Source: Blasia pusilla (lineage: Eukaryota). Taken from it: 64,000 nt of DNA. Shown piece by piece: positions 13,915 to 52,774 of the stretch. The notes under the pieces were generated by a model. The model saw only the letters and a list, made by a program, of their open reading frames with translations, made no database searches and was not told the DNA's origin. The stretch lies in the NCBI GenBank assembly GCA_050084515.1, contig CM114271.1, positions 45,384,001 through 45,448,000 of the forward strand, given 5' to 3'. Each line of letters opens with the position of its first letter. Position 1 is the stretch's first letter. The position numbers and the translations under genes were made by a program.

Positions 13915-16900
13915 CGCCCCCAATAACATGCTCAACACATGCCCATCCTAAGCATTAGCAATAGGAGTCGTCGCACTCACTTCTCCCATCGCCCTCCGTG
14001 CCTGCACACCAACAACATCACCAACTCTCCAGGAACTCTGATCAGGAGCCATCAATGGGATCCTCATAGCCTTGGACAACGTGAAAGACTGAGGAAGCAT
14101 GGTCTATTTCTTGGCTTTCCCTCATTGTGGATCCAACTCTCCGGTTGCTCCACACGTCACAACTACAACGGCCTTCATCTAGGCAACCTTGCACATCCAA
14201 CTAGGATCCTCCCTATCTCTGTCTGTTCCATATGATGTCGATGCCACAGATCCGTCATTGGATTACCTCAATGTCATAGTGGCAATCTGCTCCTGTAGCT
14301 GTTGTATGTGAGCAGCCATCCCAGCCTCATGCCTGGCATCTCCCTTAATGAGTCTAGGTGGTGGGACTCTACCTCCTCCATGGGTAGCTCCAGCTCCTCG
14401 TCCCCCAACAGGACCACCAAGTGCATGATCTCTAGGCCCACCCTGACTGGCTACTCGCTCTGGTGCCCTCTCTCGCCCTCAGTCCGGACATAACTTAGGA
14501 TGTAAATTGAAACACCAGGCGCGCGTGTGACTATACCTTTGACAATAGTCACACTGATAAGCTCATGGTGCAACACCATCTCCTCCTCCATGCTGAGGCA
14601 CACGTCCATGACCCTGACGAGTTCAATCACGATGATGATGGGCTCCACCACATGACCAACAAGTAATTATAAGCGGTTGTTGTTGAGCTGCATATGAAGG
14701 CGGATGTCTCTGTGGCACCACCTCCCGCTATGCTCCCTGAGCTTCGTGGTGCCACTATTGACCTATTTCGGAGTCCACGTTGTTGCACTGGTGGTGCAGG
14801 CAATCGTGACTGCTCTCGCCCAGAACCCATGGTGGCTACGCTCTCCTCCGTCATGTTGTGCTCAATATTCTAAGCGGTCCTAAGAACATCTCTTAACGTA
14901 GGGGAGGTGTTCATAAGAAGCATCCCCTCTCGCACCCGTGTCCGCAGGGTCTGGTCCACCATCGCGTACCATGATTGGATAGCCTGAGCCTATGTCACCC
15001 CTTGAGTTATGTTGATCAACCGGTGCAATCGAGTGTAAGCCTCATGCAAACTCTTACCCGGGCGCCTGCAGAAGTCGTGGATGCTCCGCAACTTCTCCGT
15101 CAGTACCCCCTGGTAGCTCCCCCTCAACTCAGCAAAGAACTCAACCATGGGGTTAAACCTGGGACTAACCCGACTAGATGGTGCAACTGCTCCAGTGCGA
15201 GTGATCCCTCCTAAAACATCACTAGTGGAAGAGGAAGTAGCTCTCCTGACTCTTCCTCCTCATCTGGGAACGGCTCCGTCCATGACACATAGTGTGGGTC
15301 ATAGTAGAGTCGTCATGCCTCAATCTCCTTTGCATATATTTGGGAGAACTCATGGTAATCGTCCATGGGCGCCCCCTCTAAATGCTAGAACATACCATTC
15401 CATGTTGTAAACGGGTTGAACTCTCTAGAGTTCCTAGCCCACTGTGAGTCACACCAACTCGTAAACTACGCAATGAAGTCATGTAGCTCTAAAGTGCCTA
15501 CAACACCCGAAAACCTACGTGATCCTCTACCCTAGTCGTCAATCTCATATGCCCGAGTGGTAGGACCACTCAATGTATATGGTGGATCACTAACACACTC
15601 CTCTATACGCTCCTCCTCGTCTGAAGACGACACAGAAGGAGATCGAGATGGTCTCTCACGTGGAGACCCTTGAAACCTTGCACCACTCCAAGTAAACCCT
15701 CTAGAGCTACTCTCAAGTCCACTACCTTGCCTCTCAAAATCATGAAAGGGCGCCGTGATGGCCCTCGTGCCCCTCTCACACGATCACTCTGAATCTCGCA
15801 AGTTATCCCTCAATCACTCAAACTAAACATGCAACACTCAATCTACACTATCTCATTGAGACGTGTGCTATGCGGCAAGAAGCAAGGTGGTGCGGAAAAT
15901 CAACTGATCTATCGTATCATCGACAAACCAACCTCAACTTTGGACATCCCACACGGGTCTATGTTCCCTAAATCAATAATTCATTGATCCTCCTAGCATC
16001 AGCACAAAACCCAATATCCCAAATAACTTCCCAATACCCAAAAATCCCTCACACGTGCAAGGTAAGAGACCATAATGGATAACCAAACAATAATGTCGAT
16101 GTCGCTCCTTGGAAACTGCAAATCTCGACCCCAACTTGCTCGTGAAGACAACTCCTCCTCAATATGCGGTGGAGGTCCAGCGGTCCAGTGCAGCACTGGC
16201 GACACGACACGACACGGCACGAGGGAATGGGGAGCGGCACTCGACGGTATACCCTCCTAAATCATCAATTCACATGCTCCGCTCCTTAGTGAAAGAGCGG
16301 CTCCATGATCGAGACGATGCGGTGCGGCCACGAGCGGCACGACGCGTTGCGGCTACGGGCGTCACGGCACAGTACTCGATCGTTGTTGCACGGATACCAA
16401 TCATAACCTAGCAGCATGAAATGAAAACTCAAATACCATAACCCGAGGTCACTTGCCATCTCTAGTTGATGACCACACTGCGATGATGGTGGTGGCCAAA
16501 ACAAAGTACATAGTGGCAGCAGAAGTCAAAGAATCAACGGTCGTCGTGGAAGACCCTCCACTTCGTAATGGCAACCAAGACTGGACAACAGCCAAACGCG
16601 GCTCTGAGCAGCGTTGTCATATAGTTAAATCATCCGTTGTGTAAACTCCTCTATCATTAAGTGTTAGAGATTTTTATTAGTATTAAGTAAATTAGCCTAC
16701 GAAAATAAAATTTGCATGTTTAAACCTCTTTAGGGTGACTCATTTGTGCAGGCCAAACTTTAGGAAAAAAAAGAAAATAAATAAAAGATGGGATTAGAAA
16801 AGTAAAGTAGTAAGTTGGTGCTTTAATAAAACAAAAGCAAAATTAGTCTTGGTTAGTAGGGTAGTTTGGAAGATATGAAGGAGTAAAAGAGGATATTTTG

Positions 16901-19049
16901 GAAGAGATAAGAGGTAATCTACTTGTGTCAAAATGTGATTGTCTAAACCTTGAGAGGAAGCCATGTGGCACAAGATAAGATTAGCCTTATTTCGTACTCT
17001 TGTGGATCCTTGTGAGTTTATAAAGAGGAGGGACCTTCAAGGGTTCATCACCTTCTACTTCACATCTTAATCCTCTCGTGTCATTCTTGAATGTATGGCT
17101 TTAGTATTGTTGGCTCTTCCAATGAGAGTGGATTCCAGTCTTGCGAGAATAACTTGACCTTGGTCAATTCTTGAGAGGTTTCTAGAGTGTGATATATGTG
17201 GAGATGAAAGATTTATCACCTTAGATGATTTTAGTCGTACTAGAAATAGAGGATAGTTTGGCTTGTTATTTTTGCAATGAGAGTGAATTACCCTTCTTGG
17301 GAGAGCAACTCCGCCAAATCCCATTCTAGAGGAGAGTAGAGGATGTTTGTCAAGTAGGGTTAGGGATGGAGCACCATTTGTGCCAAATTTTCCTTTCCTT
17401 AACCTGTACCACGTTAAGATTCTCTTTGTAGATAGGCACTGGTTCACTCGCTATCTAGTTTATTACTTTGGGGACGCGTTCATGAACCAAGTCCTGCAAT
17501 CTCTAACTTCCGTGATTCTTCTTATAGTCACGTACGGAAGGACATGGGATTGCACTTTGTATGTCCTTATATAGCTATCCATGGACGTTAATAGGCCTAC
17601 TTGAGTAAGGTTTAACACAAGTTATGCTATTTTCCTTGTGTACAAACGTAAAGTATTTTTACAGGGATTTCAAGGTTAAGAATTTTCAGGTTCCATGGTC
17701 TGAAGAAGTGATCACCTCGGCACTACCATTCGTAATTCCTATCGTGAGAGAATGAAGAGTTTACATAATAATTCTATAATAAAAAAGGAGAAATTCTTAT
17801 AGAGTTAAACTTGCATCAACCACGTCTGTTGTAGCTAGAAGGTCCGCCCTTATTCGAAGAAAGACTCTCGACACGACAACGTTAGGCGCCAGAGGCGGCC
17901 AACGGTGGACACTAGATCCTTGACGGTTACGATTGACCATTAATGATGACGACGGACCCTTGATGGTGAGGGTTGACCACTGATCGTTGATGGCGGACTG
18001 TTGACGATGGCTGGTTTAGGGTTTGAACAATTTAACCCAAAAAATTCACCTAGAAAGGCACTTTTGCAAGATTGACCATACTTTTTTTCTCACGACTCTA
18101 AATTATGCACCGTCTATTGCACAGCGTGCACAACTTCATGAACTACGACGGCATCAAAAAATATGTTAAATCAAATATTCCAATAAAAATTGATAGGGAT
18201 TGTCGTAAAGCCCAACGTCTCTTTCTCCTTCATAAAAATTGGCAGCGCTTCCACGTTCATTTCTCCCCAAAAAAATGTGAAACGTGTGAGAACACAAATG
18301 AGCAAGGTACATTGTGCTCCCAAGAGCACCGGCATGGAGGAATCCGCCCCCATACTCAATTCCTATAAAAAATTTGGGCTGAGCTTCTGCGTGCCACTCT
18401 CCCATACACAAAATTAGCAAAGCAAAACAGCAAACTCACACGGCTCTTGCTCGGTGAGCACTCCCATGAGCCATGAAGCGGGAAACATGATCCCCAACAT
18501 GCACCAAACATCGAGCAACCAACGAGCTCCCCCATAAAGGTCTCTCACTCACTCATTCTCTCTTTGTAAAATAAGATCCAATCTCTCTCATGTCTCTCTC
18601 AATGTCAAACCAAACCCACTATCCTAATCAAAGGCTTGGGTTACACACACAAGGCAAGCAAGACCATACCTCCGCCGCCTTATGCCAAAAGGTTCAACAA
18701 AGAGAGAATGAGCTCTAAAGCTCTCTCTCCTTGAGGTATACCCCTCCCATCTCCCAAGCTTTCTCCATGGTAACCTATGCTCCCAAGTCACCTTCTTGGC
18801 TCTTGACGTGATGTAGGAGGTGAAGGGCCACTTACCAAAAATATAAATTTGATCATATACTCAAAATGGTACTTACCTATAATAGCAAGTTCCTCAATAT
18901 GACTCCAAATGAACCCAAACGAAGGGGAAACCTGCTCTCTCAGGTTTACCATGTCGTCAATAGGTCATCCTCAACCTCTTGAGTCTGTCCTCCACTACTC
19001 CCGAAGGCGCTCTACTAGATCTCATCAATCTATCCTAAAAGACATGACA
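13915..19049 (-). mobile_element. Ty3/gypsy element copy 1 (family 1): complete 5' repeat A (18565-19049), 5' internal region and gag with zinc knuckle; pol and 3' end deleted
   Basis: 18100-19049 is homologous to 48950-49789 and 43496-44022. 15370-16420 is homologous to 47150-48300. The minus strand at ~14490-14560 reads CDYCQRYSHTRAWC (CCHC knuckle). The terminus is CATGACA at 19049. Confidence 0.8.
16640..17765 (+). mobile_element. Unrelated ~1.1-kb LTR-like segment inserted in gypsy copy 1
   Basis: Ends TGTAAACTC...GAGTTTACA form a perfect 9-bp terminal inverted repeat (TG..CA). There is an internal TATAAA at ~17018. No TSD is visible. Confidence 0.55.
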
Positions 19050-29514: not shown

Positions 29515-29937
29515 TGTCATGTCTTTTAGGATAGTTCAAAGAGATTTAGAAGAGGGCATTGGAGATAGTGTAACATAGCCTCATGAGGTCGAAGATGAAC
29601 TGTTGAGGCCACGGATAACCTAAAAGAGCTTGTTTCCCTTTTGTTTCGGCTTATATGTAGCCATATATAGAAACTTACTATTTCAAGTATGTTCCCTTTT
29701 GGAATATAGTTGACTTTGTACTTTGGGAAGTGGCCATTGACCCCCTACAAGAGGTCAAGAGCCAAGGAGGTGACCTTCAAGCAAAGGTTACCGTGGAGAG
29801 GGAAGGGGTATACCTCCAACAGAGATAGCTCATTCTCTCGTTGTTGAACTTCTTGGAATGAGGCGGAAAAACTATGGTCCTCTTTGCCTTGTGTGTGTAA
29901 CCCAAGTCTCTCATTATGAGAGTGGGTTTGGTTTGAC

Positions 29938-30011
<74 letters not shown>

Positions 30012-30178
30012 GTGCACACCGTGTGAGACCTCGTTGTTGTGAGAGATTTTATTCAAGATATTTTGATACTTCTCGTCTCATTGTCTGGATGCCATGAGTT
30101 AGCATGCATTCATGTGTATTTATGTGTATCTTTGGTGACAACGATGTATGTTGTGTAGCGATGTGTGTACGCACGATA
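29515..30178 (+). mobile_element. Solo A-B terminal unit of gypsy family 1 with 4-bp TSD (AGGT)
   Basis: Reverse complement of 43369-44022. Begins TGTCATG and ends CACGATA. Flanked by AGGT at 29511-29514 and 30179-30182. Confidence 0.85.
29941..30008. repeat. (AG)n microsatellite, ~34 units, inside the solo unit
   Basis: Direct reading. Sister copies carry only a few CT units at this position. Confidence 0.97.
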
Positions 30179-34534: not shown

Positions 34535-37500
34535 TGTTGTGCGCATACACATCGCTACAAAACCCACATCGCTGGTCACATCTACACACCACACAACACC
34601 GATCTTCCCAACCATAAGTCGATCAATCCATAAACCAAACAACTCAATCATATACATCGAGACCCCACACAAAATACATGAGTATGAAAAACGGCTCACG
34701 TGCCGTAAAACTCCACTCATGAATCTACATTGACATATCGAGCCACATCCACCCTCCGTTATGAGGAAATCTGGATGCTAGCACCCTAGCTGCTACACAC
34801 CCACACACACATACACATGCAAGAAAGGTGCTCTTAAGGCTCAACATGAGAAAGATGGCATGAGAAAGCCATCTCCCTCGCTCTTATACCCTTGGGAAGA
34901 GCCTTTTGGCTCTTCCCCCCAAAATAGCCCTCCCAATGGTAACCTACGTGCATAGGTTATCGGGTGACTGTTGACTTGGTCATCGGGTTATCTGACGAAC
35001 TGAAACCAAAATAGAAAAATTTCCATAAACAACGTCCCTAACACAATAGACCTATTTCTAACCTCATCCGACATCTAGGGATGAAGTTACTCTCACGACA
35101 GTCCGCTGGCTCTCTATGCCGTCACCACAATAGATCTCTATCTATCGACTACTAAGATGTGACAATTATCGTGCGTATACACATCACTACATAACCCACA
35201 TAGCTAGTCACATCTACACAACACACAATACCAATCTTCTCAATACATCGGTCGATCAATCCATAAACCAAATAACTCACACATATATATCGAGACTCCA
35301 CAACCGCCCCCTAGTTGGCAGTTGGGTGCTCCTAACTCTAGATAGTAAACATCTATGTATCTGACATGATCTACTATTCTATACATATATAGCACCATCG
35401 ATGCCATCGTCCCCGCAACACTGCCACACTACAGCAATCCGCCGTGTTGATCCGTCCGAAAACACTCTCGTACCCTACGCCAAACGCTACCACATGACGC
35501 ATGTGGTACCCGCATACATGAAATCTCTACCCTAAGAGCACGATTGTCACCCGACTCCATCTGCTCCAAGACATAAGCACGGCTCCACGCTTGCCTCTTA
35601 AGCTCATCTACAATCCATGTAACTCACCGCTCATCTCCAAGAACAATAAAGAAGCTTTGCACCATAGGAAGAGACACCCACCCTGACATGTCTCTCTATG
35701 GGACTATCCGCTACAGAAATATCCTATGCATGTATGCTCCTCTCTCCAAATTATCTGCTCAGCTAACACCGCATGTGAATGCTGCCAACGTGGTCACTGT
35801 ATCCTCGGGTGGCGGACCACCACTACCTCCTGCAAGTTGCACTGGTAGATGGCTCACTCGTCCATCACTTGATCGCCATCCTCGCCGATAAGAAATTTTC
35901 TCCTCTCAAAAATCCATAATGATCCTAAGGGAATACAACACCATACTCCCTACCAACATACAACTCTATCGGTGTCATAATCGCATGAGTGCGCGCGATC
36001 GCACTATCTGTCTCATGCTCTGGCTGGAGTCTAAACACTAACTCATGTCAAGTCATGTAGTGCATGGATGAAACGCCCCCAATAGAGGGTTGTATCTGAA
36101 AGGAACAATGCTTGATGTTTCCTTTCCGTAAACCCAATGCCAAACACGCTGCATTCTCTAACATCAAGGGATGCACTCCCAAATCAAGTAGGATACGTTG
36201 CGGGTGATACACCGTACTTGTGGGACTAACCAAGCAAAACACTCTAGCTCGGATATCCAACAACACCACATGGTGTGATCATGTCTCACTCTATTGTTGG
36301 CCTAGCTTGCATATCTACCAACTTCGCTGCCGCAACATGCCATGACTTTGTGGAAGACGTCCCGAGCACGTGCTCCGAGGGCAAGTCCACCACCTCCTCA
36401 ACTACCTCTGAACGAGAGGCAATCATCTCTCCGCGCTCACACAATGTAGCAACCAGCCAAAACACCTCCGTTGGTCTCACTCCCATCGTCGCCAACTCCA
36501 TGGTGGAAAACAACAAAGTCAAGCTCATCCTAGTGGCCACCTCCAAAAACGTGGTCCACACTAGCTCCACCTGAGTTGGCATAGAACTCGTGTCTCCAAC
36601 TCTTCATGAAGTGGATGCACCTGCCTTACCCATGGGTACTACTGGTCATTAAGGCATCATAAATGGTGTACGCATTGCCTGCAACAACGTGAACGACTGG
36701 GGAACCCTTACCTGGCACCCATCAATCTCCTTATGTGGGTCAATCTCAACCCCATCTCTCGATGGCTCAATTACTCTTGTAGCACCTCGAGTCACCATCA
36801 TAGCAGCTCAACTTGAGCCGCACTACACATAAATCCCATACCAGCAGAATCCTCACAAGTATCGTGGTAAGATGTGGAGGCAAGTGCCACACTAGCTACT
36901 CTCGGCTCCGTGCCTGCCCTTAGCTGCATCATTATCATGGCAGCAATCCTCTGCTCCAACTGATCGATGCGAGTAAGGAGCGCTGCATCAGGTGCACGTC
37001 CTCCATCCCTTGTGACTGGTGATGGAACTCTACCACCACGATCATCCACTACTTGATCTCCACCAACCCTCTTGCAACCAAGTCCTCTACCTACCTCAGG
37101 ACATACCTCTCGGAGAAGATGAAAATACCTATCCCTAGTGTGAACGGATCGATGACAATGATCACACTACAACTATGGTGAGGCCATCCTAGGTGGCTCT
37201 TGAGCAATTAGATGCGCCCTCAGCCCTTTACTATGATGTGGGTAGTCCCTCCACCTATGTGGTCCATCACACGTCCAACAAGCCCACCCTAGTCCTTGCA
37301 AGGTAACATATATCGGTACGGTTGTTGCCTTATTGGCTCACGATATCCGCCCTGCTCTCTAGGCCCATCGGCCCGCTCCGGTGGTACGGGTGCATGGAGG
37401 ACCACCTGTGGCTCTACTCCTACTCGTGGACCCCTTGAATCTCAAAAAAATCGTGTGGTCACAACCTGCTCCCAGATCATGTTGAGCTCTATCCACTCAG

Positions 37501-39985
37501 ACAACTCGATGATCACCTTCAATGTGGGAGCACACTGTGTGAAGCAACATCACATCCTGAACTCTCCTCTACAACTCCTGGTCCAGCACCCCGTACCAAA
37601 ATTGTACTAATTGTGCCTTATTCATCCCATATGTTGCAATGATCAGCCGTTGCATGCGCATGAACGCCTCCTTCAAACTCTCACCCGATCTTCGCTCAAA
37701 ATCCTATAGACTCTTCAGCTTGTCGGTCCGCACGCTTTGGTAGCTCCTCCCCAACTGTCAGAAGAACTCCATTGTAGGACTGAAACTCAGTGGAACTCTA
37801 CCATGAGAGGTTTGTGCCATCTCACCACTCTCATTGCCATCCTCTCCATCTAGTCCCCGAGCTAATGGCGTAGGCCTCTCCCCTCTCACTATCCCATCAT
37901 ACACCTCATGGCCGCTAGTGGACACATACCCTGGACACATACCTTCAAGCATCAATCTCTAATGAGTGTAAAGATAAAAAATCCATGTAGTCATCCATAG
38001 GAGGACCCTCTAAATATTTGAACAGACTCTTCCACGCCATGAAAGGGTTGAACCACGCAGGGGCGCGTATATCCTGGTAGTCGCACCATATGTAAAACTC
38101 CTAGAAAAAGTCATCTACATCTATGGTGCCTACCGCACCCAAGAAACAACTCATGCCCTGATGGCCCATGTCATCCATCTCTCTCAACGTATCATTGTCC
38201 CCGTCCGTGATCTCGTCACCAAACCCCTTGTCTAGTGATGATGATCCAGCCACGGATGAGAGTTGGCGCGGGGTGGTTCCTCACTAGAAACCCCTCAATA
38301 CCTCACACCACTCCATGTCACTCCACTACCACTGCTTGCACTACCCCTTTCTTCTAAACCCTGGAAGAACGTCGTGATGACAACCATGTCTCACCCGCTC
38401 AAGCACTTAGACTTACCAATAGTCTCACACTCCTCACTAGCTCACCTATGCTAATGGTAATCCCGTGACAACATACCCAAACTCACGCACCCTCAACACT
38501 TGGGCTCACCATGAGCCTCCCAAACAAACTCACCTAGACTACCGACACTGTCAGGTCATACACACGAACCCTACTAGGCAATCGCCGTATATTTACAAAC
38601 ATGCTATACATGCATGGAGACTACACTCGTCACCATTGCTACATCCATCTAGCACCAATGACTACCCGACACCCATCACTCTCTATGACATGAGACAAGT
38701 GCGGGAAAAGGGACTCGAATGGGTAACCTCAATATGCCAACCAATCTACTACATGTCAACCCTAACTCCTCCATGTGGTAGAGCAACCTCCGCAACACAA
38801 CCATCTTCTTGCACAACACGTCAATCCTCCATCAAAACCCTCTTACCCACAGTGGATGAAGGACAACTACGGCGACCCCCACGCAACTTGCAACTACGGA
38901 AAAACTCCCGTCGTGGATCCCATCCGCGCTCGCGGTACACCAAGTCCCCAAAAACTCTCTCCCACTACATGACCCAACTCAACCACGTTCAACTCCCTCA
39001 ACCCGATAATGTGAATCAACCACGTCCAACTCCTTGCTCTACCATGTTGACCTGTTCACCAACCACGTCTCCTCAAAGGACCACGTCCGCCCTACCAATC
39101 ACGTCCAACATGCCCTCCAACATCCGGCTTGCCTACCACGTCTGCACTCAATCACGTCTGCCCTAAGGGGTCTAAATGGGGGGAAGTGGAAGTAAATTCG
39201 TGGGGGGGGGGAAGGCCCGCAACCCTATGGGCCTTAATTGTTGGGGGAGGAGGGGGATAGGGGGCGCGATACCCTATGCGCGGCCCCTACCAAACTTCTC
39301 TCTCAACCCACCTTCCACCTCCTTAGCTGTAGCTTCGGCCTGTCCGCATGCCTCCCTATGAAACCGCGACCCTCGTAGCCAGACTCCTACTCTACGCATA
39401 TCCATGTGGCTCAAAGTGACCTAAAACAACTCTACAACCAAGCGGCCGTGACCTAGCTTGGCCGCCCTCACGGCGGCTATGGCGACTTGATCTAACATGC
39501 TTATCTTCCCGCTTGTTCAATATGCGCCGCTCTCTCGACGTTGCTACCTACACGCTACAAACGAGCACTCCTTTTCCATTATCCTTCGTCAACCCGCACT
39601 AGCAAGAAATGAGAAAAATGGACAAGGCTTCTGCTCACAATCTCCCGAATGTAAAAATGATAACAAAATGCCAACCAGCGTCTCCAAGGGCTCCCCAACT
39701 GAGGCAACTCGCTTGCCTTCCTGCAACCAATGAATTCCCTGCCCCCTTGTATCTTTCTCATGTAAAATTTGAGTTGTAAAAATGGCTCATCCGGCCTAAA
39801 CTTCACTCATGAATCTACATTGGCATGTTGAGCCACATCTACCCTCTGCTATGAGGGAATCTGGACGCCAACACCCTAGCTCCTATACACACACACACAT
39901 ACACACACACATGGAAGAAATATGCTCCTTATGCTCAACATGAGAAAGATGTCTTGAGAAAGCCATCTCCCTCACTCTTATACCC
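34535..39985 (-). mobile_element. Ty3/gypsy element copy 2 (family 2): split repeats B 34535-34669, A 34670-35164, B' 35167-35302 and truncated 5' A 39761-39985; gag and protease remnants, most of pol deleted
   Basis: The repeats are directly visible. PPT-like AGGGGGCGG lies on the minus strand at ~35304-35313. Protease-like ILLDLGVHPLML is in ORF 36048-36269. A knuckle remnant CDHCHRSVH is at ~37140-37170. Gag 37940-38230 resembles 15370-15620 and 47150-47450. Confidence 0.85.
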
Positions 39986-40049
39986 ATCTGTGTATAAGAG
40001 TGAAGGAGAATGCTACATCACTTGAGGTACCCTAAGACATTAGGGTACT

Positions 40050-40416: not shown

Positions 40417-43368
40417 TTCATCTTGTCCAACCTTCCCATCTTGAGCTGAAATTTGGCCCACATGGTTTCCAAGGTGTATCTAATCCTCTTGCCAAGTTTC
40501 AAGCAAAATGGAGTTGAGACCACAAGCTCAAAAATCGATAAGTCTTTTTTGGACTTATCGATTACAAACCATCTGACCTTCCAAAGAAATAAGGTTTTCT
40601 CTTTTTTCATCTTGTCCAACTTTCCCATCTTGCGCTGAAATTTGGCCCACGGGATCTCTAAGGTGCATCTAACCCTCTTGCCAAGTTTCAACGAAAATGG
40701 AGCTGAGACAACAAGCTCCAAAATTGGTAAGTTTGTTTGTGACCCACACCATCAATCCTTCTATCAAATTAACCCATAATTTCCATTCTTCATATTGTCA
40801 AACTTTCCCATCTAGAGTTTAAATTTGGCCCACATTGTCCACTAGGTACATGTTCCACTATTGCCAAGTTTCAAGCAAAATGGAGTCGTGAGCAAAACAT
40901 CACAAATTAATAATTCCTTTTTGGACGCGAACCATCAAATCTTGAATGAAAAGAAGGTCTTTTTATTTTTCATCTTCTCCAACTTTCCCATCTTGAGCAA
41001 TATTGGAACGTGCACCTTGGGGACCGTGTGGGCCAAATTTCAGCTCAAGACTAAAAAGTCCACTTTGACTACGTTTCAAGCAAAATGGAATTATGAGCAA
41101 AAGCTCACAAATTAATAACTTATTTTTGGACCCGAATCGACAGACCTTCTATCAAAATATTTTTTTCATTTTTCATCTTGTTCAACTTTCCCATCTTAAG
41201 GTGAAATTTGGACCTGAACCATCAGACCTTGTATCAAATTAAGGTTTTTTCATTTTTCATCTTTGTCCAACTTTCCCATCTTGAGGTGAAATTTGTGACC
41301 CACATAGTCCCCAAAGTGCATGTTCCACTCTTGCCAAGTTTTAAGTAAAACGGAGTTTTGAGCAAAACCTCACCAATTAACAACTCCTTTTTGGACCCGT
41401 ACCATCACATCTTCCATAGAAATAAGATTTTATCATTTTTCATCTTGTCCAAATTTCCCATCTTGAGCTGAAATTTGGCCCACATGGTCCCCAAGGTGCA
41501 TGTTTAATCCCTGCCAAGTTTCAAGAAGAATGGATTTATGAGCAAAACCTCACAAATTAATACCAACTTTTTGGACTCGAACCATCAGACCTTCTATCAA
41601 AATAAGGATTTTTCATTTTTTATCTTTTCAAAATTTTCCATTTTGAGCTAAATTTTGACAAACATGGTCCTTAAGATGCATGTTCCACTCTTGCCAAATT
41701 TCAAGCAAAATGGAGTTCTCACGAAAACCTCGAAAATTAATATTTCCTTTTTGGACCCATACCATCAAACCTTGAATGATAAGAAGGTCTTTTCATTTTT
41801 CATCTTGTCCAACTTTACCATCTTGAGTTTAAATTTCTTCAACATGATCACCGAGATGCATGTTAAATGTTTGCCAAGTTTCAAGCAAAATGGAGTTGTG
41901 CGCACAAGCTCAAGTTTTGGTAAGTCCTTTTTCTAACCCGAATCAACAGACCTTTTATCAAATTAAGGTTTTTTCATTTTTCATGTTGTGAAAATTTCCC
42001 ATTTTGAGCTGAAATTTGGCATACATTGTCCCCAAGGTGCATGTTCAGCTCTTGCCAATTTTCAAGCATAATGGATTTTTTAGCAAACCCTTAAAAATTA
42101 ATAATTATTTTTTGGACCCAAACCATGAGACCCTCTATCAAAATAAGGTTTTTTATTGTCCAACTTTTCCATCTTGAGCTTAAATTTGGCCCATAGGTTA
42201 TCCAAGGTGCATCTAACCCTTTTATCAAGTTTCAAGCAAAATGTTGAACGCAAGCTCAAAAATTGGTAACTTGTTTTTTGACTTTGCCTTCTATCAAAAT
42301 AAGAATGTACTATTTTTCATCTTGTCCAACTTTCCCATCTAGAACTCCAATTTGGCCCATAGTTTTGCAAGGTGCATATAGCATTCTTTCCAAGTTTCAA
42401 GAAAAATGGAGTTGTGGCCAAAACCTCAAAAATTCTTTTGTGGACCTGAACCATAAGACACTTTATCAAAAGAAATTTTTTTTTTTTCATTTTTCATCTT
42501 GTCCAACTTTCTCATCTTGAGCTGAAATTGGGCCCACATTCTCCTTAAGGAACATGTTCCACTCTTTCAAATTTTCAAGTAAAATGGAACTATGACCAAA
42601 ACCTCACAAATTAATTACTCCTTTTTGGACCCGAACCATCAAACCTTCTATCAAAATAAGGATTTATTATTTTTCATCTTGTCCAAATTTTCCATCTTGA
42701 GCTGAAATTTGGCCCACATGGTCTCCAAGGTGCATGTAGCACTATTGCCAAGTTTCAAGAAAAATGGAGTTGGGACCACAAGCTCAAAAATTAATAAGTC
42801 CTTTTTGGACTTATCGATTACGAACCATCTGACCTTCCAAAGAAATAAGGTTATCTCATTTTTCATCTTGTCTAACTTTCCCATCTAGAGCTTAAATAGG
42901 CCCACATGGTCCCCAAGGTACATGTTCCACTCTCGCCAAGTTTCAACCAAAATGGAGTTGTGAGTAAAAGCTCACAAATTAAGAACTGCTTTTTGGAACT
43001 GAAGCATCAAACCTTGAATGAAAGAAGGTCTTTTCATTTTTCATCTTGTCCAACTTTCCCATTTTTAGCTGAAATTTGTCCCACATAGTCCCTAAGGTGC
43101 ATGTTCAACTATTACAAAGTTTCAAGCATAATGGAATTGTGAGAAAAACCTCCAAAATTAATAATTCCTTTTTGGACCCAAACCATGGGACTTTCTATCA
43201 AAATAAAGTTTTACCATTTTTTATCTTGTCCAACTTTCCCCATATTGAGCTGAAATTTTTCCCACATGGTCTCCAAGGTGCATCTAACCCTCTTGCCAAG
43301 TTTAAAGCAAAATAAAGTTGTGAGCACAAGTTCAAAAATTGGTAAGTCTTTTTTTGATTCGAACCATC
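40417..43368. repeat. 180-bp tandem satellite, array 1 (~16 diverged monomers)
   Basis: The unit TTCATCTTGTCCAACTTTCCCATCTTGAGCTGAAATTTGGCCCACATGG...GCCAAGTTTCAAGCAAAATGGAG...GAACCATCAGACCTTCTATCAAAATAAGG recurs every ~180 bp (e.g. 40789, 40969). Confidence 0.97.
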
Positions 43369-46300
43369 TATCGTGCGCATACACATCGCTACATAAGATA
43401 TATCGGTGTCACCGAACATACACACAAACACACACAATCCGATGCTAGCTCATGACATCCAAACAACGAGACGAGAAATACCAAAATATATCCAATTTAA
43501 ATCAATGAAATCTCTCATCACATCTCACACCAAGCTCTCAATGGTGTGCACTCTCTCTAATGTCAAACCAAACCCACTCTCCTAATGAGAGACTAGGGTT
43601 GCACACATAGCCTCCTAATGAGAGGCTAGGGTTACACCATAGCTCCACCGCCTCATGCCAAGAGGTTCAACAATGAGAGAATGAGCTCTCAAACTCTCTC
43701 TCTTGGAGGTATATCCCCTTTTCCTCTCCCAAGTCCTCTCCATGGTAACCTATGCTCGCAGGTCACCTCCTTTGATCTTGACTTGTTGTAGCGGATCAAG
43801 GGTCACTTACCAAAGTGGAAAGTTAACTATATCAAATACAATAAAATACCTAAAATATCAAGTTTCTAAATATGGCTCCAAATAAGCCAAAACGAAGGGA
43901 AAACCTGCTCTCCCAAGTTATCCGTGGCCTCAGTAGGTCATCCTCGACCTCTTGAGGCTGTCCTCCAGTATCTCCAAAGGCGTGCTACTAGATCTTGTCG
44001 ATATTTTCTAAAAGTTGTGACAATTGTCGTGCACATACACATTGCCACACAACATACATCATTGTCATCGAACATACATACAAACATGCATGATTCGATG
44101 CTAACTTATAGCATCCAAAGAACAAGATGAGAAGTACCAAAATATCTCTAATCGTCCCCCTAGTTGGTGGTTAGGTTCCTCTAACTCCATACAACCATCT
44201 ATCCCTACCTACCATGACATACATCTCTCAGACGCTAAGAGCAAAAATGTCGGGTGCTCATGTGGCCCCATCGTTAGTAGTCTTTCTGTCATCCATCTCA
44301 CAGACATGAGTCGGAATCTATCACTACCTACTCTATGTACATTTGGGACACATCCATTATCCCCGAGGAACCCTAGTGAGAGGTGGCGTCAAACATGCCA
44401 TATGCCATCATCTCAAACATCCATCATAGACTAGCATAGTAATTTCACCAATGGCGGAACCACACAACATACATCGCAAGCCTGCAGGAACTACTACTAA
44501 GCTCAGATTGACTGTACCGTCAATGTTAGGAAGATGATATGACGTACAATTACACACTTGGTCCTTCCAAACCATACCATCACGTCCCTCCAATAAGACA
44601 ACACTATATGGCAAAATCCCATGCACTCTCAAGATGGTGTGCCCTATAGTCACATCCAACGTCGTGGGTGTCATTTGCTGCAAGTAGACATAGTCTCCCT
44701 CATGAAACCTCCAGATAGTAGGTTGATAACCACCTTCATGACTAGTCGCATACCTCAATGTATCCCGATGTTGCGCAGTCGCCAAGTTCTCAAACGCCAT
44801 GGGCATCACTCTCCTAAATAACTCAACCCTTCGAGAACATGCTCGCATCCATACATCACGGTCATCAAGGTTCAACACCTCACCAATGGCAACAAGTAAA
44901 TGGGGCTCTCGGCTACAAAGTAGAAAGTACGGTGAGATATACGCTAAAGATGTTTGCCTGCTGAATCTGTATCCCATCGCCAACCATGACAACTGGAGGT
45001 TCCAATCTCTTAGGTGATCTCTCTACAAGCCATACTTGCTCAATCCTCTCTTCACCGTCTACACAACCCTCTCCGCTAGTCCATCCGCCTCAGGATGATC
45101 TCGCAAAGTGGTGCGTTGGTCGATCAACGCCTAATCACACTAGGCTTGAAACTCCCCGCGAAACTCTGTATCATGGTCTGTCAACACCTCAATTAATGCA
45201 CTGTAATGACTTAACACCCCAATCTAGGAAGGCATACGCTACTCCCTCAATCGCTTTGTCGGGAAATGCAACCAACTCTATCCAATTCGAGAAGTGGTCG
45301 ACCATCACCAACACATAACGAATATGGCACTTCGTCAAAGGTAAAGGTCTTGCAAAATCCAAACTCCATCTATAACTTAAACCCATGATAAGAAGTGGAT
45401 ACAACTATGGAGTCAGAGCATTGAACGATGCTCGGACCCTATCACACACCATGCATTGGCAACAAACTGCTGAACATCACTGTGCATACCTCGCCACCAA
45501 TATTGTATCTGGAGCAAGCTGTACGTCCGCTTCACTCCAAAATGACCCGAATCCTCGTGGGCATGATGCACTAGACGTGCTCTCTGTGAAGGATGGGGCA
45601 CTACACGCACTATATCCTCCTCCCAAACGTGCAACACATGTGTCCCCTCCCACCGGAACCGTCTGGCTTGCTATACGATCTGATCCCGCTCTCTAGCAAC
45701 CACTATGCTCGCGACGTTGCCTTTTTGCTGGTACTCCAAGACAACTCCATCGTCGTGAATATCACGGCCACCTGTCGTATCCTCACCCACCTTTGGACCT
45801 AAAGACTCTCCATCAGACCTTGCCATCGAAGTCTCAGCAATCTGGCTCTCCATAGCCAAAAAGCCCAAATAGGCTAACCTGTGCCATCTTGGCACCAACT
45901 CCTCATCACTCTTACCATGCCAACGAGCTTCAATCGCGTCTCATTGACTCAAGCATGAGTTATGACTCAAACCACATGTATCCTAACGAGCATCCTAATT
46001 GAGCATCCTAAGCCTATGCACCATTTGGAAATCATACTCCTACAACAACAGAGCCCACCTCGCAAGCTTCCCTGTAAGCTTGTCGGACTCCATCAACCAC
46101 TTAAGTGGCTGATGATCAGTAATAATGATAAAGGGGTGAGCATGGCTCCAAGCCCCAACATGCTCCAATCGGTAAGCAATTGGAAAGGACGCCCTGTGAT
46201 GGGTCTCCTTACTATGGGCACGGACGTCAATCAGTCCTTGAGCGGCTAAAATGCTCTTTCTTGGTCATCCCCCTAGTGCCACTTCTGATCCACCTTCCTA

Positions 46301-49300
46301 AGTTGGGTGAGCAGCTTCGCAATCGAAGCAAAACCCTTGAGGTACTATCGATAGAAGTTTGCCAATCCCATGAATGCACGAACTCGACTCACATCTGTAG
46401 GATATGGAATGCGTGAAATAGCCTTTATCTTTGTCTGGTATACACCAAGGCCCCTTGGATATATGGTATGACCTTGGTACTCAATCAGGTTGTAGAAGAA
46501 CTTGAATTTTCCTGGATGTAGCTTCGGCCCATATAACTGCAACCGTCGAAACGCTTCCTCTAGATGTCACTCATGCTCCTCAACCGTGACGCTAAATACT
46601 ACGATGTCATCAAGATAACATCTAGCAAAATCCAGACCTGCCAAGATCCTATCTTTGACCCTCTAAAAACTGAACGGGGGCGTTCTTTAACCCAAAAGGT
46701 AAGAACCACCATTGGTACAAATAATCCTTCCCATGAGGATCGATGCCCCAAAATGCCGTCTTCTGCGTATCTTCCAAATTGATAGGCAATTGATGGTACC
46801 TGGCTCAAAGATCTAGCAAATTGAAGACCTTTGCATGCCAAATAACATCAAAGATCTCCTCAGGCGTGAGCAAGGCATGTATACCTATCGGACTTTGTCT
46901 ATCGATTGATAGGTCGGTAATCTCCACACAACCGCCTATCCGTCCAATTGCCATGCACATCCTTCTTGGTGGGCATGATAATGGCAGATGCATACTCTCC
47001 ATGTGACATTTCCACTATTCTGCTCCAACCAAGTCATGGATCCTACTCTAAATCAGAGCCCTCTCAATGTCACTGTACCTGAAGGATCGTCGGAAGATCA
47101 GCGTGTCGCTCGAAAACTCAATGCAGAGTAGAGTTGCCATGCCTCAATCTCTTGGGCATATCTATGGGACAACTCATGGTAGTTGTCCATGTGTGCCCTC
47201 TCTAAATATTGGAATATACCGTTCCATGTTATGAATGGGTTGAACTCTCTAGAGTTCCTAGCCCGCTGTGAGTCACATCAACTCCTAAACTCCGCAATGA
47301 AGTCATGTAACTCTATAGTGCCTATAGCACCCGAGAACCTACGCAATCCTCTATCCCGATTGTCCATCTCCTACGCCCAACTGGTAGGACCATTCAATGT
47401 GTGCAATGAATCACTAACACACTCCTCTACACTCTCCCCCTCATCTGAAGACGACATATAAGGAGGTCAAGGCGGTCCCTCACGTGGAGGTCCTCAAAAA
47501 CCTCGCGCCACTCCGCGTAAACCACTATGGCTACTCTTAAGTCCACCATCTCGCCTCTCAAAGTCTCGGAAGGACGCCATGATGACCCTCGTGCCCCTTT
47601 CACACAATCACTCTCAATCCAGTGAGTAATCACTCAATCATTCAAACTAAACATACGGCACTTAATCTACACTCTCGTACTGAGACGTGTGTTGTGCGCG
47701 GCGTGATGCCAAAAATCGGCTGATCTAACTTCTCATCGACAAACCATACCCTTAACTGTGGATATCTTACACAAGTTTATGTCCCCTAAACCCATACATC
47801 AATGATGCTCTCATCATCCACACAAAACCTAATATCCCCAAATAACTACCCAATACTCGGAAATCCCTAACACGTGCAGGGCAAAATACCAGAATGGATA
47901 ACCTGAACAAATATCGATTCTCCTCTACAACTGCAAACCTTGATCCCAACTCGACCGTGAAGAAAAACTCCTCCAAATAGCACGTCGTACTCTCCTGATA
48001 CTGACAGTGATCAAATCTCCTCGATGTGCATTGCGGGTCCAACAATGCAGTATGGCATTGGCGGCACGGAACGGCTACAACCAGCACGACACTCGGGCAT
48101 GGAATGCGGCACTCAACGGCATACCCTCCTCCAGAAAAAAAAACATAATGTGCTCCCCAAGAATGGTGCGACTCCGCGATCAAGACGGTGCGGTGCGGCT
48201 ACGAGCGGCAGGACGTGGCAATCGGCCTAGCGTTCCGGCTATAGGCAACACGGCACGGTACTCGATCGTCGTCGAGCATTTACCACCTCAAGACATAGCA
48301 AGGCTAGAAGAGAAATGCGGCCCTAACAATCCAAAAAAAGAAACTGTCCAATCAACAAAGGTGACAAATGCCATCAACGACGATCAACGGACGGAGCAAG
48401 GATGGACCAATATCCGGGAAAAACGGTAGAAATAATTTCGATTCAGTTTGCTACCGGCCAAAAAAGGGAGGGATGGTCTGTTTGCGATTGGAATCGAAAA
48501 CTTGAAAATTTGCCGCTCGGTTTTGTAGAGACCGGAAATGTACCGGTTGTCACGAAAAAACTCCCCGGACCCTGGGATGGACTGAATGGACGGTGAAAGT
48601 CAATACTAATTACAATATCTTTCATGTGGATAAATATGGTTCTTTTTTAACCTTATTCAAAAAGTTAAAGTTTTTTTGTTTTTCCCCACTCTACTAACTC
48701 CTTCAACTAAGGGTCAACTCACTAAAATTATTCACATTTGGTTTATACTCCACTAAGCCCCATAAATATTGGATCAACATCCACAAAATAAAATTTTCAT
48801 TCACTTTAACCTCAAGATCATAAGTTTCATTTGTCCTTTCTCCAATAATAAAATATTTTTATTTTTTCTACCTCAACTAAGAAGTTACCAAGAATTTCAA
48901 AAATTGCTCCTTCTTCACGCGGTGGGTATGGTAGCTCCACAAAAATGATCATAACTTCTTACTCACATGTTTAAATTACGCATCATTTCTTCCATAATGT
49001 GCATAGCCTTTGGATCTATGACCGCGTTCATTTTTTTTCCATTCAACATTCCAAACAAAACTAACGGGGAATGTCATGCAACCCTTCAATCTGCACTCTT
49101 ACGAAAAAATCGCCAACAATTCCGCGCTAATTTCTCCCAACAAAGAGTTCAAACCTATAAAATCATAAATCAGAAAGGTACATTATGCTCCCAAGAGCAC
49201 CGGCATGGGGAAATCCTCCCCCATACTCAATTCCTACAAAATTTGGGCAGCGCTTCCGTGCGCCACTCTTCCACACGAAAACTCGGCAAAGAAAACAACA

Positions 49301-49789
49301 AAATCAAACGGCTCTTGCTTCGGTGAGCACTCCCATGAGCTGTTGAATGGGAAACACAGTCTCGACCTGCACCAACAGCGAGTGACCAACGAGCTCCTCC
49401 ATTGAAACTCCCTTACTCTCTCATTCTCTCTTTGTAAATCAATGAAATCTCTCATCACATCTCACACCAAGCTCTCCATTGTGTGCACTCTCTCCCTCTC
49501 TCGTGTCAAACCAAACCCACTCTCCTAATCAGAGGTTTGGGTTATACACACAAGGCAAGGAGGACCATAGTTCCGTCGCCTCATGCCAAGAGGTTCAACA
49601 ATGAGAGAATGAGCTGTCAAGCTCTCTCTCTTGGAGGTATTCCCCCTTTCCTCTTCCAAGCCCTCTCCACGGTAACCTATGCTCGCAGGTCACTTCCTTG
49701 GATCTTGACCTACTGTAGCGGGTCAATGACACTTCCCAAAGTAGAAATTCAACTATACACAAAATGGAAACTTACCCAAACTAGTAAGG
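43369..49789 (-). mobile_element. Ty3/gypsy element copy 3 (family 1) inside the satellite: B 43369-43494, A 43496-44022, B' 44025-44150, pol, gag, truncated 5' A 49434-49789
   Basis: The repeats are directly visible. PPT AGGGGGACGA lies on the minus strand at ~44152-44162. RT, RNaseH, integrase and PHD remnants lie inside in gypsy order. Confidence 0.92.
44335..47080 (-). pseudogene. Gypsy pol: RT - RNase H - integrase (HHCC, rve core) - PHD finger; frameshifted
   Basis: RT reads KKDVHGNWTDRRLCGDYR, TPEEIFD, LLDL, FGLKNAP, CYLDDI, KLHPGK and VRAFMGLANFYR. Integrase reads HAHEDSGHFGVKRT..YWWRGM and WSLDFARPLP..LVMVDHFSNWIE. The C-terminus reads CMLCGS..MLVYDGCLR*WHMACLTPPLTRVPRG*WMCPKC. Confidence 0.92.
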
Positions 49790-51866: not shown

Positions 51867-51990
51867 TGTCACATCTGAGTAGCCGTTAGGTAGGGATCTA
51901 TCGCGGAAACGTCACAGAGATCCAACAGACTATCATGAGTATAACTTCATCTTCAGGTGTGGGATGGGGTTGAGGATAGTTCCGTTGTGT
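51867..51990 (+). mobile_element. Terminal fragment (start of repeat A) of gypsy family 2
   Basis: TGTCACATCTGAGTAGCCGTTAGGTAGGGATCTAT...TAACTTCATC aligns with the reverse complement of 35050-35164. Confidence 0.8.
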
Positions 51991-52774
51991 AAAGACTGTC
52001 GTTTTTACAACTTTCATTTCGTGTTCTTTCACAAAGTGTGTTTGGAGGAAAAGTCATGATATTCGGTGGTAATTTTGGTGAAGTCTTGTATTCTATTCGT
52101 CATGGGGATCGTCCCCAAATTACATATCCAAGCCACTCTAAATTAAGAGAGAATCATTACGGTTGTCTATAAATATGATGAAATTGACCAAAAACATAAG
52201 AGTTCAAAGGTTGGAAGATAAAATGCGCGTTTAACAATAAGAATTCCTCGATTGGTTATTGGCGGTGAGAGAGGGTCGTTTACCTTGCACCTTCATTTTA
52301 GAGATGATTTTATATAGTTGCCATCTGATATGGTTACTAAGAGCAATAAGAGAAGTGATATTATTGATACTATTTATGGGAATACTCAATGTTATTTCAT
52401 AACATCGACGTCTTGAGAGATACAACTTTTTGACGTCAAGAAATAGAGATGTGGACGAGAGAAACGCGCAAGTCATGGCTTAATTTTATGGAGAAGTAAT
52501 GATCATCTATTTAGTTCTTTAATTTCCAAGTCTTTGCATGTATGTAGGCTCGCCAACAAATCTTCTCGCTAATGAATACAATTTTGTGTATAAGCGCATA
52601 TTTACCTTAATGTTGACCTTATTCCGAATGGGGGAATGAGTCATATCTGTCCAACCGAATTCTTAAACACGATGCTTACCTTATGGGCTACTTCCACATA
52701 ATTTGTGTTTGAAGATTAGTGCATTGAAACGTCCATATGAAATATCGACGGATTAGATAAGTTGTTCTTACTTA

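Follow-up and report, generated by a model that had tools for sequence, protein, structure and literature searches.

The window analysed here is a 64,000-nucleotide stretch of DNA from Blasia pusilla (GenBank assembly GCA_050084515.1, contig CM114271.1, positions 45,384,001 to 45,448,000 of the forward strand). It contains two retrotransposons, E2 (43369-49789) and E1 (34535-39985), whose terminal repeats are split into two blocks, A and B. In E2, for which the minus strand is the coding strand, the order is A, gag-pol, polypurine tract, B, AT, A, B; E1 has the identical order with an A sequence unrelated to that of E2. The features of the two elements are listed below.

43369..43494, minus strand: E2 terminal B (B2), 80% identical to 44025-44150, from reading of the sequence
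43496..44022, minus strand: E2 3' A, full length, begins TGTCACA, from sequence comparison
44023..44024, minus strand: E2 spacer AT, two bases, separating the B end (...CGACA) from the A start (TGTCAC...)
44025..44150, minus strand: E2 inner B (B1), immediately downstream of the polypurine tract
44151..44166, minus strand: E2 polypurine tract, CCAACTAGGGGGACGA on the coding strand; E1 has the same motif
44167..49419, minus strand: E2 internal region, decayed gag-pol interrupted by numerous stops and frame shifts
49420..49430, minus strand: E2 primer binding site, self-priming type, GAGAGAATGAG, begins 3 nt past the 5' A
49434..49789, minus strand: E2 5' A copy, first ~171 bp absent, cut off at 49789 along with satellite DNA
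34535..34669, minus strand: E1 terminal B, from repeat comparison
34670..35164, minus strand: E1 3' A, unrelated to the E2 A apart from the first bases
35165..35166, minus strand: E1 spacer AT, two bases, from reading of the sequence
35167..35303, minus strand: E1 inner B, whose plus-strand neighbour is the polypurine tract (35304-35318)
39765..39985, minus strand: E1 5' A copy, truncated at 39985, where there is a short inverted repeat

The B pair of E2 (43369-43494 and 44025-44150) shares 80% identity (E 6e-28) and its A pair (43498-43831 and 49435-49757) 83% (E 3e-97). The corresponding values for E1 are 86% for B (34539-34669 and 35171-35302, E 2e-40) and 82% for A (34679-34891 and 39770-39985, E 3e-58). 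On the plus strand the junction between the inner B and the 3' A reads TGTGACA-AT-TGTCGTG in E2 (44016-44031) and TGTGACA-AT-TATCGTG in E1 (35158-35173), and the AT spacer of E2 is the centre of a 10-bp palindrome. The inner B of both elements is adjoined by a G-run polypurine tract. The B2 of E2 finishes with ...CACGATA, which is the genomic 3' end of the element and adjoins satellite DNA, and the 3' A contains a TATA-like box and a site complementary to the primer site. The internal region of E2 encodes reverse transcriptase (RT), RNase H, an H2C2 zinc domain, a DDE core and a C-terminal PHD finger.

The first-pass annotation of this locus had claimed an A-internal-B-AT-A-B layout for E2 and E1, and this held, with the repeats and junction strings at the positions given above. 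It had also taken 49789 and 39985 to be the genomic 5' ends, and this part failed. The 5' A is truncated in both E2 (356 of 527 bp) and E1 (about 216 of about 495 bp), and neither position is therefore a natural element end. Across the E2 insertion the surrounding 180-bp satellite loses its phase, the left flank stopping at unit position 17 and the right restarting at 91, which points to a deletion on the 5' side. Natural 5' ends, starting TGTCA... and without B upstream, are found at 19049, 29515 and 51867, in the following copies.

15300..19049, minus strand: E3, third copy of the E2 family, 3' half missing
29515..30178, plus strand: solo A-B of the E2 family, TGTCATG...CGCACGATA
51867..52020, plus strand: E1-family A fragment, starts TGTCACATC, immediately after satellite DNA, without upstream B

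The 5' A of E3 is full length (18590-19049) and starts TGTCATG at 19049, with an unrelated flank that has no upstream B. The solo A-B is bordered by AGGT on both flanks (29511-29514 and 30179-30182). From these three 5' ends in the window, the natural termini of the elements start TGTCA... and finish ...CGA(C/T)A. The 5' truncation of E1 and the fragment at 51867 might each represent one half of a single inversion, but this was rejected, as the homology ends after about 150 nt and not at the predicted break.

The elements are Ty3/gypsy LTR retrotransposons of the bryophyte type, with gag, protease, RT, RNase H and a DD35E integrase carrying a C-terminal PHD finger. The Pfam domains RVT_1, RT_RNaseH(_2), Integrase_H2C2, rve and PHD were identified in 3/3 full-length relatives, and pieces of E2 matched RT_RNaseH, Integrase_H2C2 and rve. 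An alignment of 21 proteins gives a consensus with the DD35E spacing (...LDF..., ...TDQG... and, 35 residues on, an E), and these motifs can also be read in the broken frames of E2. The best PDB match, and the closest solved relative, is the Ty3 Gag-Pol (7q5b, E 4e-101). Liverwort and moss genomes contain the most similar proteins, and one relative, P0010, was derived from a transcriptome. The C-terminal domain of the integrase is a PHD finger (PF00628) in all three full-length relatives, with no chromodomain, and the integrase tail falls in PHD clusters of the Protein Atlas; the long reading frame 4327-6378 had no Protein Atlas match. A tyrosine recombinase reading frame, proposed as a check by the first-pass annotation, was not found: Pfam scans of the E2 pieces, the reading frames of a related metagenome locus (L069) and the three full-length relatives revealed no such domain, and a DD35E integrase with a PHD finger was present instead. 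Rfam searches of E2, E1, L069 and a second metagenome locus, L005, gave nothing useful, and B is not a known small-RNA gene.

The 5' A is not followed by the TGG of a tRNA-type primer site. In 10 of 12 elements the bases after the 5' A are exactly complementary, over 9-16 nt, to a site in A, which in six of these elements lies 24-33 nt past a TATA-like box. The words vary by family, and 8 of the 10 were reached by no more than 10 of 1000 shuffles. The primer site of E2 complements 49603-49613 exactly over 11 nt, a match that 2 of 1000 shuffles also reached, and the 5' A of E1 contains a 13-nt complement to its primer site. The complementarity covaries between families; this rests on sequence only, the RNA start being predicted and not measured.

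The comparison set comprised 80 related metagenome loci, which were reduced to 49 distinct insertion sites by collapsing those with the same 3' flank. The loci were drawn from few metagenome series, some of them being one locus assembled twice, and few host species are sampled. The 3' end is B-A-B in 34 of the 80 loci and a single B in 24; for the distinct sites the numbers are 28 (B-NN-A-B) and 21 (single B). The B-NN-A-B order spans at least three sequence-unrelated families and the complete arrangement, A-int-B-NN-A-B, is present in five loci. The claim that the permuted layout is general therefore held, as it recurs at 28 distinct sites, while the frequent single-B form, A-int-B, had not been foreseen.

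In these loci the 5' A begins TGTCATG and the last B finishes CACGACA. If the elements start at A and end at B, a target duplication should lie at those ends, and the evidence is in favour: a perfect 4-bp duplication was found outside the A start and B end at 7 of 10 tested sites (L069, L076, L079, L002, L062, L066 and the solo A-B of the window), with an imperfect one at L080 (3/4 bases) and none at L050 and L018. Single-B copies have their own 4-bp duplications at three of the four sites tested. The other permutation, A-B-NN-A-int-B, was not seen in any of the 15 loci with a 5' A or at the three 5' ends in the window.

Two observations would have refuted the layout and neither was made. The first, two equal LTRs with target duplications outside B-NN-A, is not met, as B was absent upstream of the 5' A in all 15 loci showing a 5' A, and no copy with two equal B-NN-A repeats (the canonical form) was found among those examined. 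The second was nested solo LTRs with variable junctions. The spacer between B and A is exactly 2 nt in 30/30 loci, and the blocks are therefore not independent nested solo LTRs. The G-run adjoins B1 in all 30 loci, and CA-NN-TG shows zero length change in 17/17.

The joint between the 3' A and B2 is located exactly where the U5 end meets the tract end, and its length is variable. Among 14 distinct copies, the commonest form occurs in six, length or base variants in seven and a large deletion in one; six of the seven variants differ by -2 to +3 nt or more, and some include the first bases of the primer site. Close relatives have differing A/B joints, in a tree of 13 repeat sequences that is mostly unresolved. 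Later slippage in the AT-rich stretch may explain part of the length variation.

Within copies, identities are 82-89% for A-A and 80-94% for B-B, from which it follows that both repeat pairs date from insertion. All the copies examined are old, with B-B identity no higher than 96% and, in the window copies, L069 and L002, with disrupted reading frames. Comparison of four sequencing runs with E2 revealed that the family is very abundant in the organism of the window. The joints derived from the runs include swaps between two A or two B copies and repeats of the joint of A end to B start, the latter in at least two contigs in X1 and at least two in X4. Of sampled words from the window, 5-14% were present in five sequencing runs of one organism.

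The best reading of these data, and one that we consider more likely than not, is that the cDNA is joined end to end and that integrase cuts an internal palindrome. It is inferred from integrated copies alone, free DNA in circular or end-joined form not having been seen. The ends recognised by integrase (TGTCA... and ...CGACA) would sit back to back inside the reverse-transcribed repeat, as a ...CA-NN-TG... palindrome. Based on sequence signals, transcription is predicted to start about 30 nt past the TATA box in the 5' A and to end in the 3' A, the start and the poly(A) site both being predictions. The 5' end of the RNA would prime its own reverse transcription just downstream of the 5' A, and plus-strand synthesis would begin at the G-run tract immediately upstream of B. 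As the tract adjoins B and the self-priming site follows the 5' A, the cDNA should be (B-NN-A)-int-(B-NN-A). Its tips, A end to B start, would then be joined as in a 2-LTR circle, and integrase would cut one internal CA-NN-TG palindrome and insert the opened molecule with a 4-bp target duplication; neither of these two steps has been shown. The predicted product, A-int-tract-B-NN-A-B, would be the sole form that can again be transcribed into terminally redundant RNA. Single-B copies may come from 1-LTR circles, from double palindrome cutting of linear cDNA or from later B-B recombination, and solo A-B units from A-A recombination.

The first-pass annotation had inferred both that B-NN-A is the reverse-transcribed repeat, which is supported by the position of the tract and the self-priming site, and that a circle is opened at the internal CA/AT/TG, which is supported with the qualification that the circle is inferred, not seen. 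Its symmetric circle does not account for the presence of only one of the two permutations. This is an argument against a circle route: a symmetric 2-LTR circle would have two identical palindromes and should also give A-B-NN-A-int-B, which was not seen at any of the 5' ends examined.

The alternative that survives best, although we consider it unlikely, is that reverse transcription itself yields a linear cDNA tipped by the A start and the B end, without a circle or host ligation. One way would be for reverse transcription to leave its template at the U5 end and resume at the U3 start, either on that molecule or on one packaged with it; integrase would then use the DNA tips as usual. This would explain the single permutation, the other being absent from every one of the 15 loci in which a 5' A is visible. 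The ends are of the canonical TG...CA type with a 4-bp duplication, and a template switch could also make an A/B joint lying exactly at the U5 end and U3 start. However, the tract adjoins B1, so the left tip would still be the B start and an internal NN/TG cut would be required regardless. In addition, the A end and B start have no homology to guide a switch, and the variable length of the joint suits end joining at least equally well.

A second alternative, which has little to recommend it, is that the primary insertion is always A-int-B, excised at the palindromes from linear cDNA or a 1-LTR circle, with NN-A-B added separately. In its favour, single-B copies are common (21/49 distinct sites) and have their own 4-bp duplications (3/4 sites tested). 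Against it, A-int-B lacks a 3' copy of R, without which the inferred mechanism could not copy it; the spacer never departs from 2 nt, and the first base of B2 is in every case the one set by the tract. Furthermore, the B1-B2 and A5-A3 identities within copies are similar, which is not expected from a second, independent event.

The two remaining alternatives can be almost entirely ruled out. Integration by a tyrosine recombinase, as in DIRS/Ngaro/PAT-like elements, would match the repeat order A1-int-B1-A2-B2, but no recombinase domain was found in the E2 pieces, the L069 reading frames or the three full-length relatives, and the elements encode a DD35E integrase and have 4-bp target duplications, a polypurine tract and a primer site. 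Accidental later rearrangement (solo LTRs nested beside normal elements, or duplications arising locally in an old region rich in repeats) would suit the age and damage of the window copies, with the 5' ends of E1 and E2 truncated and E3 lacking its 3' half, but the order is repeated at 28 distinct sites and in three or more families that have no sequence relationship, the spacer and borders are invariant, and target duplications enclose the entire A...B unit.

The elements share features with several known systems. The DIRS-order elements (PAT-like, Ngaro and TOC1) have the same A1-int-B1-A2-B2 order, that of a two-repeat circle opened inside the repeat. They have a gypsy-related RT and RNase H, carry a tyrosine recombinase gene and insert without duplicating the target. 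The present elements differ from them in having a DD35E integrase with a PHD finger, 4-bp duplications, TG...CA ends, a polypurine tract and a primer site of predicted self-priming type. With canonical Ty3/gypsy elements (Metaviridae) they have in common the order of RT, RNase H and integrase, the TG...CA ends, the 4-bp duplication, the tract and a primer site. Unlike these, the integrated copies lack a pair of equal LTRs, the 5' end being A alone and the 3' end B-NN-A-B or B, and the integration ends lie inside the reverse-transcribed repeat, such that the copy is a circular permutation. Sequence complementarity between the predicted RNA 5' end and a site just past the 5' repeat resembles that of Tf1/sushi and plant Tcn1 elements, and self-priming has been described for the Tcn1 elements of mosses and club-mosses (PMC6317226). 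Those elements, however, have a chromodomain and ordinary LTRs in place of a PHD finger and split repeats. REM1, a PHD-bearing gypsy element of Chlamydomonas, is reported to have an unusual layout.

The integrases of foamy virus and HIV-1 cleave the palindromic LTR-LTR junction of 2-LTR circles (PMC1180852, PMC1905944, PMC4372172). The inferred reaction of the present elements is similar, in that a DDE integrase would act at an internal CA...TG palindrome of abutted ends. Retroviruses use this only as a side route, at a junction that arises solely on circularisation, whereas here the palindrome is built into U3 and is apparently the regular integration site. Bacterial insertion sequences of the IS3, IS30 and IS256 families move by copy-out and paste-in via a circle junction. 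Abutted ends with a short spacer are likewise the substrate of their DDE enzyme, but theirs is a prokaryotic DNA-to-DNA movement without reverse transcription.

A bolder reading, which we could as readily accept as reject, is that this clade has relocated its integration sites from the cDNA tips to a built-in circle-junction palindrome inside U3. A DDE integrase would then regularly integrate end-joined or circular cDNA, which would make this the equivalent, in a eukaryotic retrotransposon, of the copy-out and paste-in movement of bacterial elements. In that case, split direct repeats either evolved separately alongside a DDE integrase or represent an intermediate on the path from gypsy-like elements to DIRS-like ones, and the one-sided permutation would reflect an ordered step, such as the first double-stranded repeat being the one cut.

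No description of split or permuted repeats in an LTR element with a DDE integrase was found in the literature searched. Split direct repeats serve as a hallmark of tyrosine-recombinase elements; as they occur here alongside target duplications in a gypsy lineage with a DDE integrase, they cannot be taken as diagnostic. Integration through a circle junction was dropped as an idea for retroviruses decades ago and persists only as a side reaction. Under the end-joining reading, the layout would be natural evidence that an integrase can take an internal, circle-junction-like site as its regular substrate, and the palindrome, the self-priming site and the variable A/B joint provide experimental handles. 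LTR finders would choose A...A as the LTR pair, miss the duplication and misplace both borders, and since the family is very abundant in the organism of the window, the annotation of bryophyte repeats and the dating of their insertions are affected.

Both gypsy elements with split permuted repeats in the window, E1 and E2, are read from the minus strand and have the order A-int-B-NN-A-B, in which A and B are the two repeat parts, int is the internal region and NN is a 2-nt spacer. The first-pass annotation had proposed this order, as that of a 2-LTR circle opened inside the LTR, and the junction strings that it quoted are present letter for letter in both elements. The 5' ends that it assigned failed, both 5' copies of A (A5) being incomplete and not natural ends. 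The parts of E2 (A3, 3' copy of A; B1 and B2, inner and terminal B) and the related features are as follows.

Repeat elements and their parts in the window.
49789-49434, minus strand: A5 of E2, 356 of 527 bp of A
between A5 and the tract, minus strand: gag-pol of E2, degenerate
44166-44151, minus strand: polypurine tract of E2, G-run
44150-44025, minus strand: B1 of E2
between B1 and A3, minus strand: AT spacer of E2
44022-43496, minus strand: A3 of E2
43494-43369, minus strand: B2 of E2
34535-39985: E1, order as in E2
15300-19049, minus strand: E3, a third copy, of the E2 family; full-length 5' A with TGTCATG start at 19049
29515-30178, plus strand: solo A-B unit, TGTCATG to CGCACGATA, flanked on both sides by AGGT
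from 51867: E1-family A fragment, beginning TGTCACATC and directly adjoining satellite DNA

The repeats of E2 are 80% (B1/B2, E 6e-28) and 83% (A5/A3, E 3e-97) identical and those of E1 86% (B/B) and 82% (A/A), while likeness between the A parts of the two elements is limited to the first bases. Stops and frame shifts are numerous in both elements. Pfam scanning of E2 pieces picked up Integrase_H2C2, rve and RT_RNaseH, and a PHD finger can be made out at the C-terminal end of the pol.

The locale is rich in repeats, with a 180-bp satellite spanning 40417-43368 and 49791-51866. The satellite phase breaks across E2, the last unit position being 17 in the left flank and the first 91 in the right, so the start of A5 and satellite DNA were lost in a deletion. 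E1 retains about 216 of about 495 bp of A5. No B lies upstream of the 5' A of E3, where the flank is unrelated. Where the E1 A5 is truncated (39965-40010), about 20 nt of A is inverted-repeated across a 4-nt gap, resembling a small hairpin-type scar; a large inversion joining this scar to 51867 was tested and ruled out. The A part of the solo unit contains about 70 bp of (GA)n microsatellite at 29938-30008, its counterpart in other copies being a short GAGAGAG stretch. E2 (inverted, 43368/43369) and the E1-family fragment (direct, 51866/51867) both lie immediately right of the satellite word GAACCATC(A), their insertion points within 1 bp of the same unit phase; the satellite might hold a preferred target position, a hint from these two cases only.

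Elsewhere in the window, two long minus-strand open frames, 1440-3416 (659 aa) and 4327-6378 (684 aa), match nothing in Pfam. The second, serine-rich and disordered in appearance, has no usable match in the protein Atlas and is likely to be part of a host gene, though otherwise unexplained. At 56016-56834 on the plus strand, a reading frame hits the SMP-associated PH domain (PF23065, E 6e-13), suggesting an ordinary host gene right of the repeat cluster.

Scanning of metagenome contigs with an integrase-PHD alignment yielded 80 related loci (L0xx), all of which were classified. The integrase is followed by B-A-B in 34 and by one B with 500 bp or more of sequence beyond it in 24; three have a B with too little sequence beyond, one has B-A cut by the contig end, and no B was found in 18 (15 with at most 1202 bp downstream; L030, L044 and L048 with more than 9 kb). 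When shared 3' flanks are collapsed there are 49 distinct sites, 28 with B-A-B and 21 with a single B. By eye, the single-B locus L041 continues into a truncated A, and L007 is irregular, with A-B after the integrase. The complete A-int-B-NN-A-B is present in five loci with enough upstream sequence (L050, L069, L076, L079 and L080), where within-copy identity is 84-89% for A5/A3 and 88-94% for B1/B2; both repeat pairs are therefore as old as the insertion. None of the 15 loci with A upstream of the integrase (about 13 distinct, estimated without a flank check) has a B before or after that A, and these loci thus offer no instance of either the canonical form, [B-NN-A]-int-[B-NN-A], or the opposite permutation, A-B-NN-A-int-B. 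In L061 and L074, one site assembled twice, the 3' A is just 75 bp, the deletion having taken A from around position 75 up to the B2 start, apparently across a short shared word; the B-A-B block is thus prone to internal deletion.

Every family has a 5' A that starts with TGTCA, which reads TATCA or TGTTA where the copy is decayed, and a last B with CACGACA, or a decayed form of it, at its end. A perfect 4-bp target duplication lies outside these ends at seven of ten tested sites: in the complete form in L069 (ATGT), L076 (ACCT) and L079 (ACAA), in the A-int-B form in L002 (ACTA), L062 (TTTT) and L066 (GTAT), and at the window solo A-B (AGGT). Three of the four bases agree in L080, and the duplication is absent at L050 and L018. 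The inner joint is invariably the B end, two bases and the A start; the loci have GC, AC, GT, AT or AA as spacer and the two window elements have AT, with GC or AT giving a perfect palindrome, GACA-NN-TGTC.

B2 directly follows A3 in integrated copies, with the end of U5 meeting the first base past the tract, which is the joint expected from ligated cDNA tips, as in a 2-LTR circle. This joint was compared in 17 loci of the larger clade, 14 of them distinct. It reads ...TTC-AAT/ATACATG in six distinct copies, varies in length or base in seven (2 nt missing in two; AATTC, with which the primer site starts, AATTCA, AATA, AAG and loss of the first five bases of B in one each) and has a large deletion in A in one. 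The CA-NN-TG joint is constant in length in the same 17 loci. In a mostly unresolved repeat-sequence tree, near relatives are unlike at the A/B joint. This fits a fresh joint per insertion, some later slippage allowed.

A run of 5-10 G directly adjoins B1 in 30 loci and both window elements. TGG is absent after the 5' A. Ten of the 12 elements tested show exact complementarity of 9-16 nt between bases no more than about 10 nt past A5 and a site in A, which lies 24-33 nt past a TATA-like box in L002, L050, L069, L076, L080 and E3. The words, which are not alike between families, include CTCATTCTCTC (E2 and E3), ATCTTTCTCATGT (E1), ACTTTTGGTGATT (L018) and AGTTTTTCTAGAATT (L050 and L080). For eight of the ten, 10 or fewer of 1000 shuffles did as well (31 for L002, 57 for L079); L062 and L066 have no complementary word of at least 8 nt. 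Self-priming is on record for Tf1/sushi elements and for the Tcn1 elements of mosses and club-mosses (PMC6317226), and the words appear, on sequence evidence only, to be its signature. Because of the TATA-spaced complementary site, and of AATAAA downstream of the predicted start in the A of L069, A looks like U3-R-U5. The transcript would read R-U5-primer site-int-tract-B-NN-U3-R and, by the standard LTR-element scheme and with no RNA end measured, reverse transcription would produce B-NN-A as the repeat.

Relatives of the 204-aa integrase tail of E2, used as protein query, share 52-67% identity and include liverwort (Marchantia, Calypogeia) and moss (Sphagnum) records, named as in the source records, together with one reading frame from a transcriptome. 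The domains precomputed for them are RVT_1, RT_RNaseH, Integrase_H2C2, rve and PHD; scans of three full-length relatives gave these again and no recombinase domain. Among solved structures the closest is Ty3 Gag-Pol (7q5b, E 4e-101), and the alignment consensus keeps the integrase D, D and E residues with 35-residue spacing. Contig pieces of the family (at least 80% identity) number 9,558 to 86,275 per sequencing run, indicating that it is very abundant in the sequenced organism. In L069, which belongs to the larger related clade and is complete, a frame between protease and RT (6274-6834, plus strand) matches C-5 cytosine DNA methylase (PF00145, E 1.5e-6, score 28.4 bits, cut-off 22); a DNA methyltransferase may thus be present in these 9.3-kb elements, a possibility resting on the single locus scanned. 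Retrotransposon-borne methyltransferases have been reported from other algae.

The layout, ends, duplications, enzyme type and positions of the tract and complementary site are shown; the cDNA form, tip joining and single palindrome cut are inferred. In the proposed mechanism, cDNA of the form [B-NN-A]-int-[B-NN-A] would be made, its tips would be joined, and integrase would make one cut at the internal palindrome, giving A-int-B-NN-A-B, putatively the sole form with R at both transcript ends. Integrase cleavage of palindromic LTR-LTR junctions is described for foamy virus and HIV-1 (PMC1180852, PMC1905944, PMC4372172). Three origins, indistinguishable here, are possible for single-B copies: 1-LTR circles, linear cDNA cut at its two palindromes, and recombination between B copies. 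A symmetric circle predicts both permutations whereas one is observed, a one-sidedness that the circle model does not explain. Speculatively, the left repeat could be the earlier of the two to become double-stranded, and already be cut by the time the right one is made. A one-sided permutation would likewise result under the rival explanation, in which reverse transcription switches template.

PAT-like, Ngaro and TOC1 elements have a repeat order identical to that of the Blasia pusilla window elements, but they possess a tyrosine recombinase and no target duplication, and the window elements and their relatives fail membership on the features tested. No description of the split-repeat layout in a DDE-integrase element was found in the full-text literature searched, although a prior mention is not excluded. 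On the tested features, the window elements and their relatives meet membership of gypsy, the equal-LTR rule excepted.
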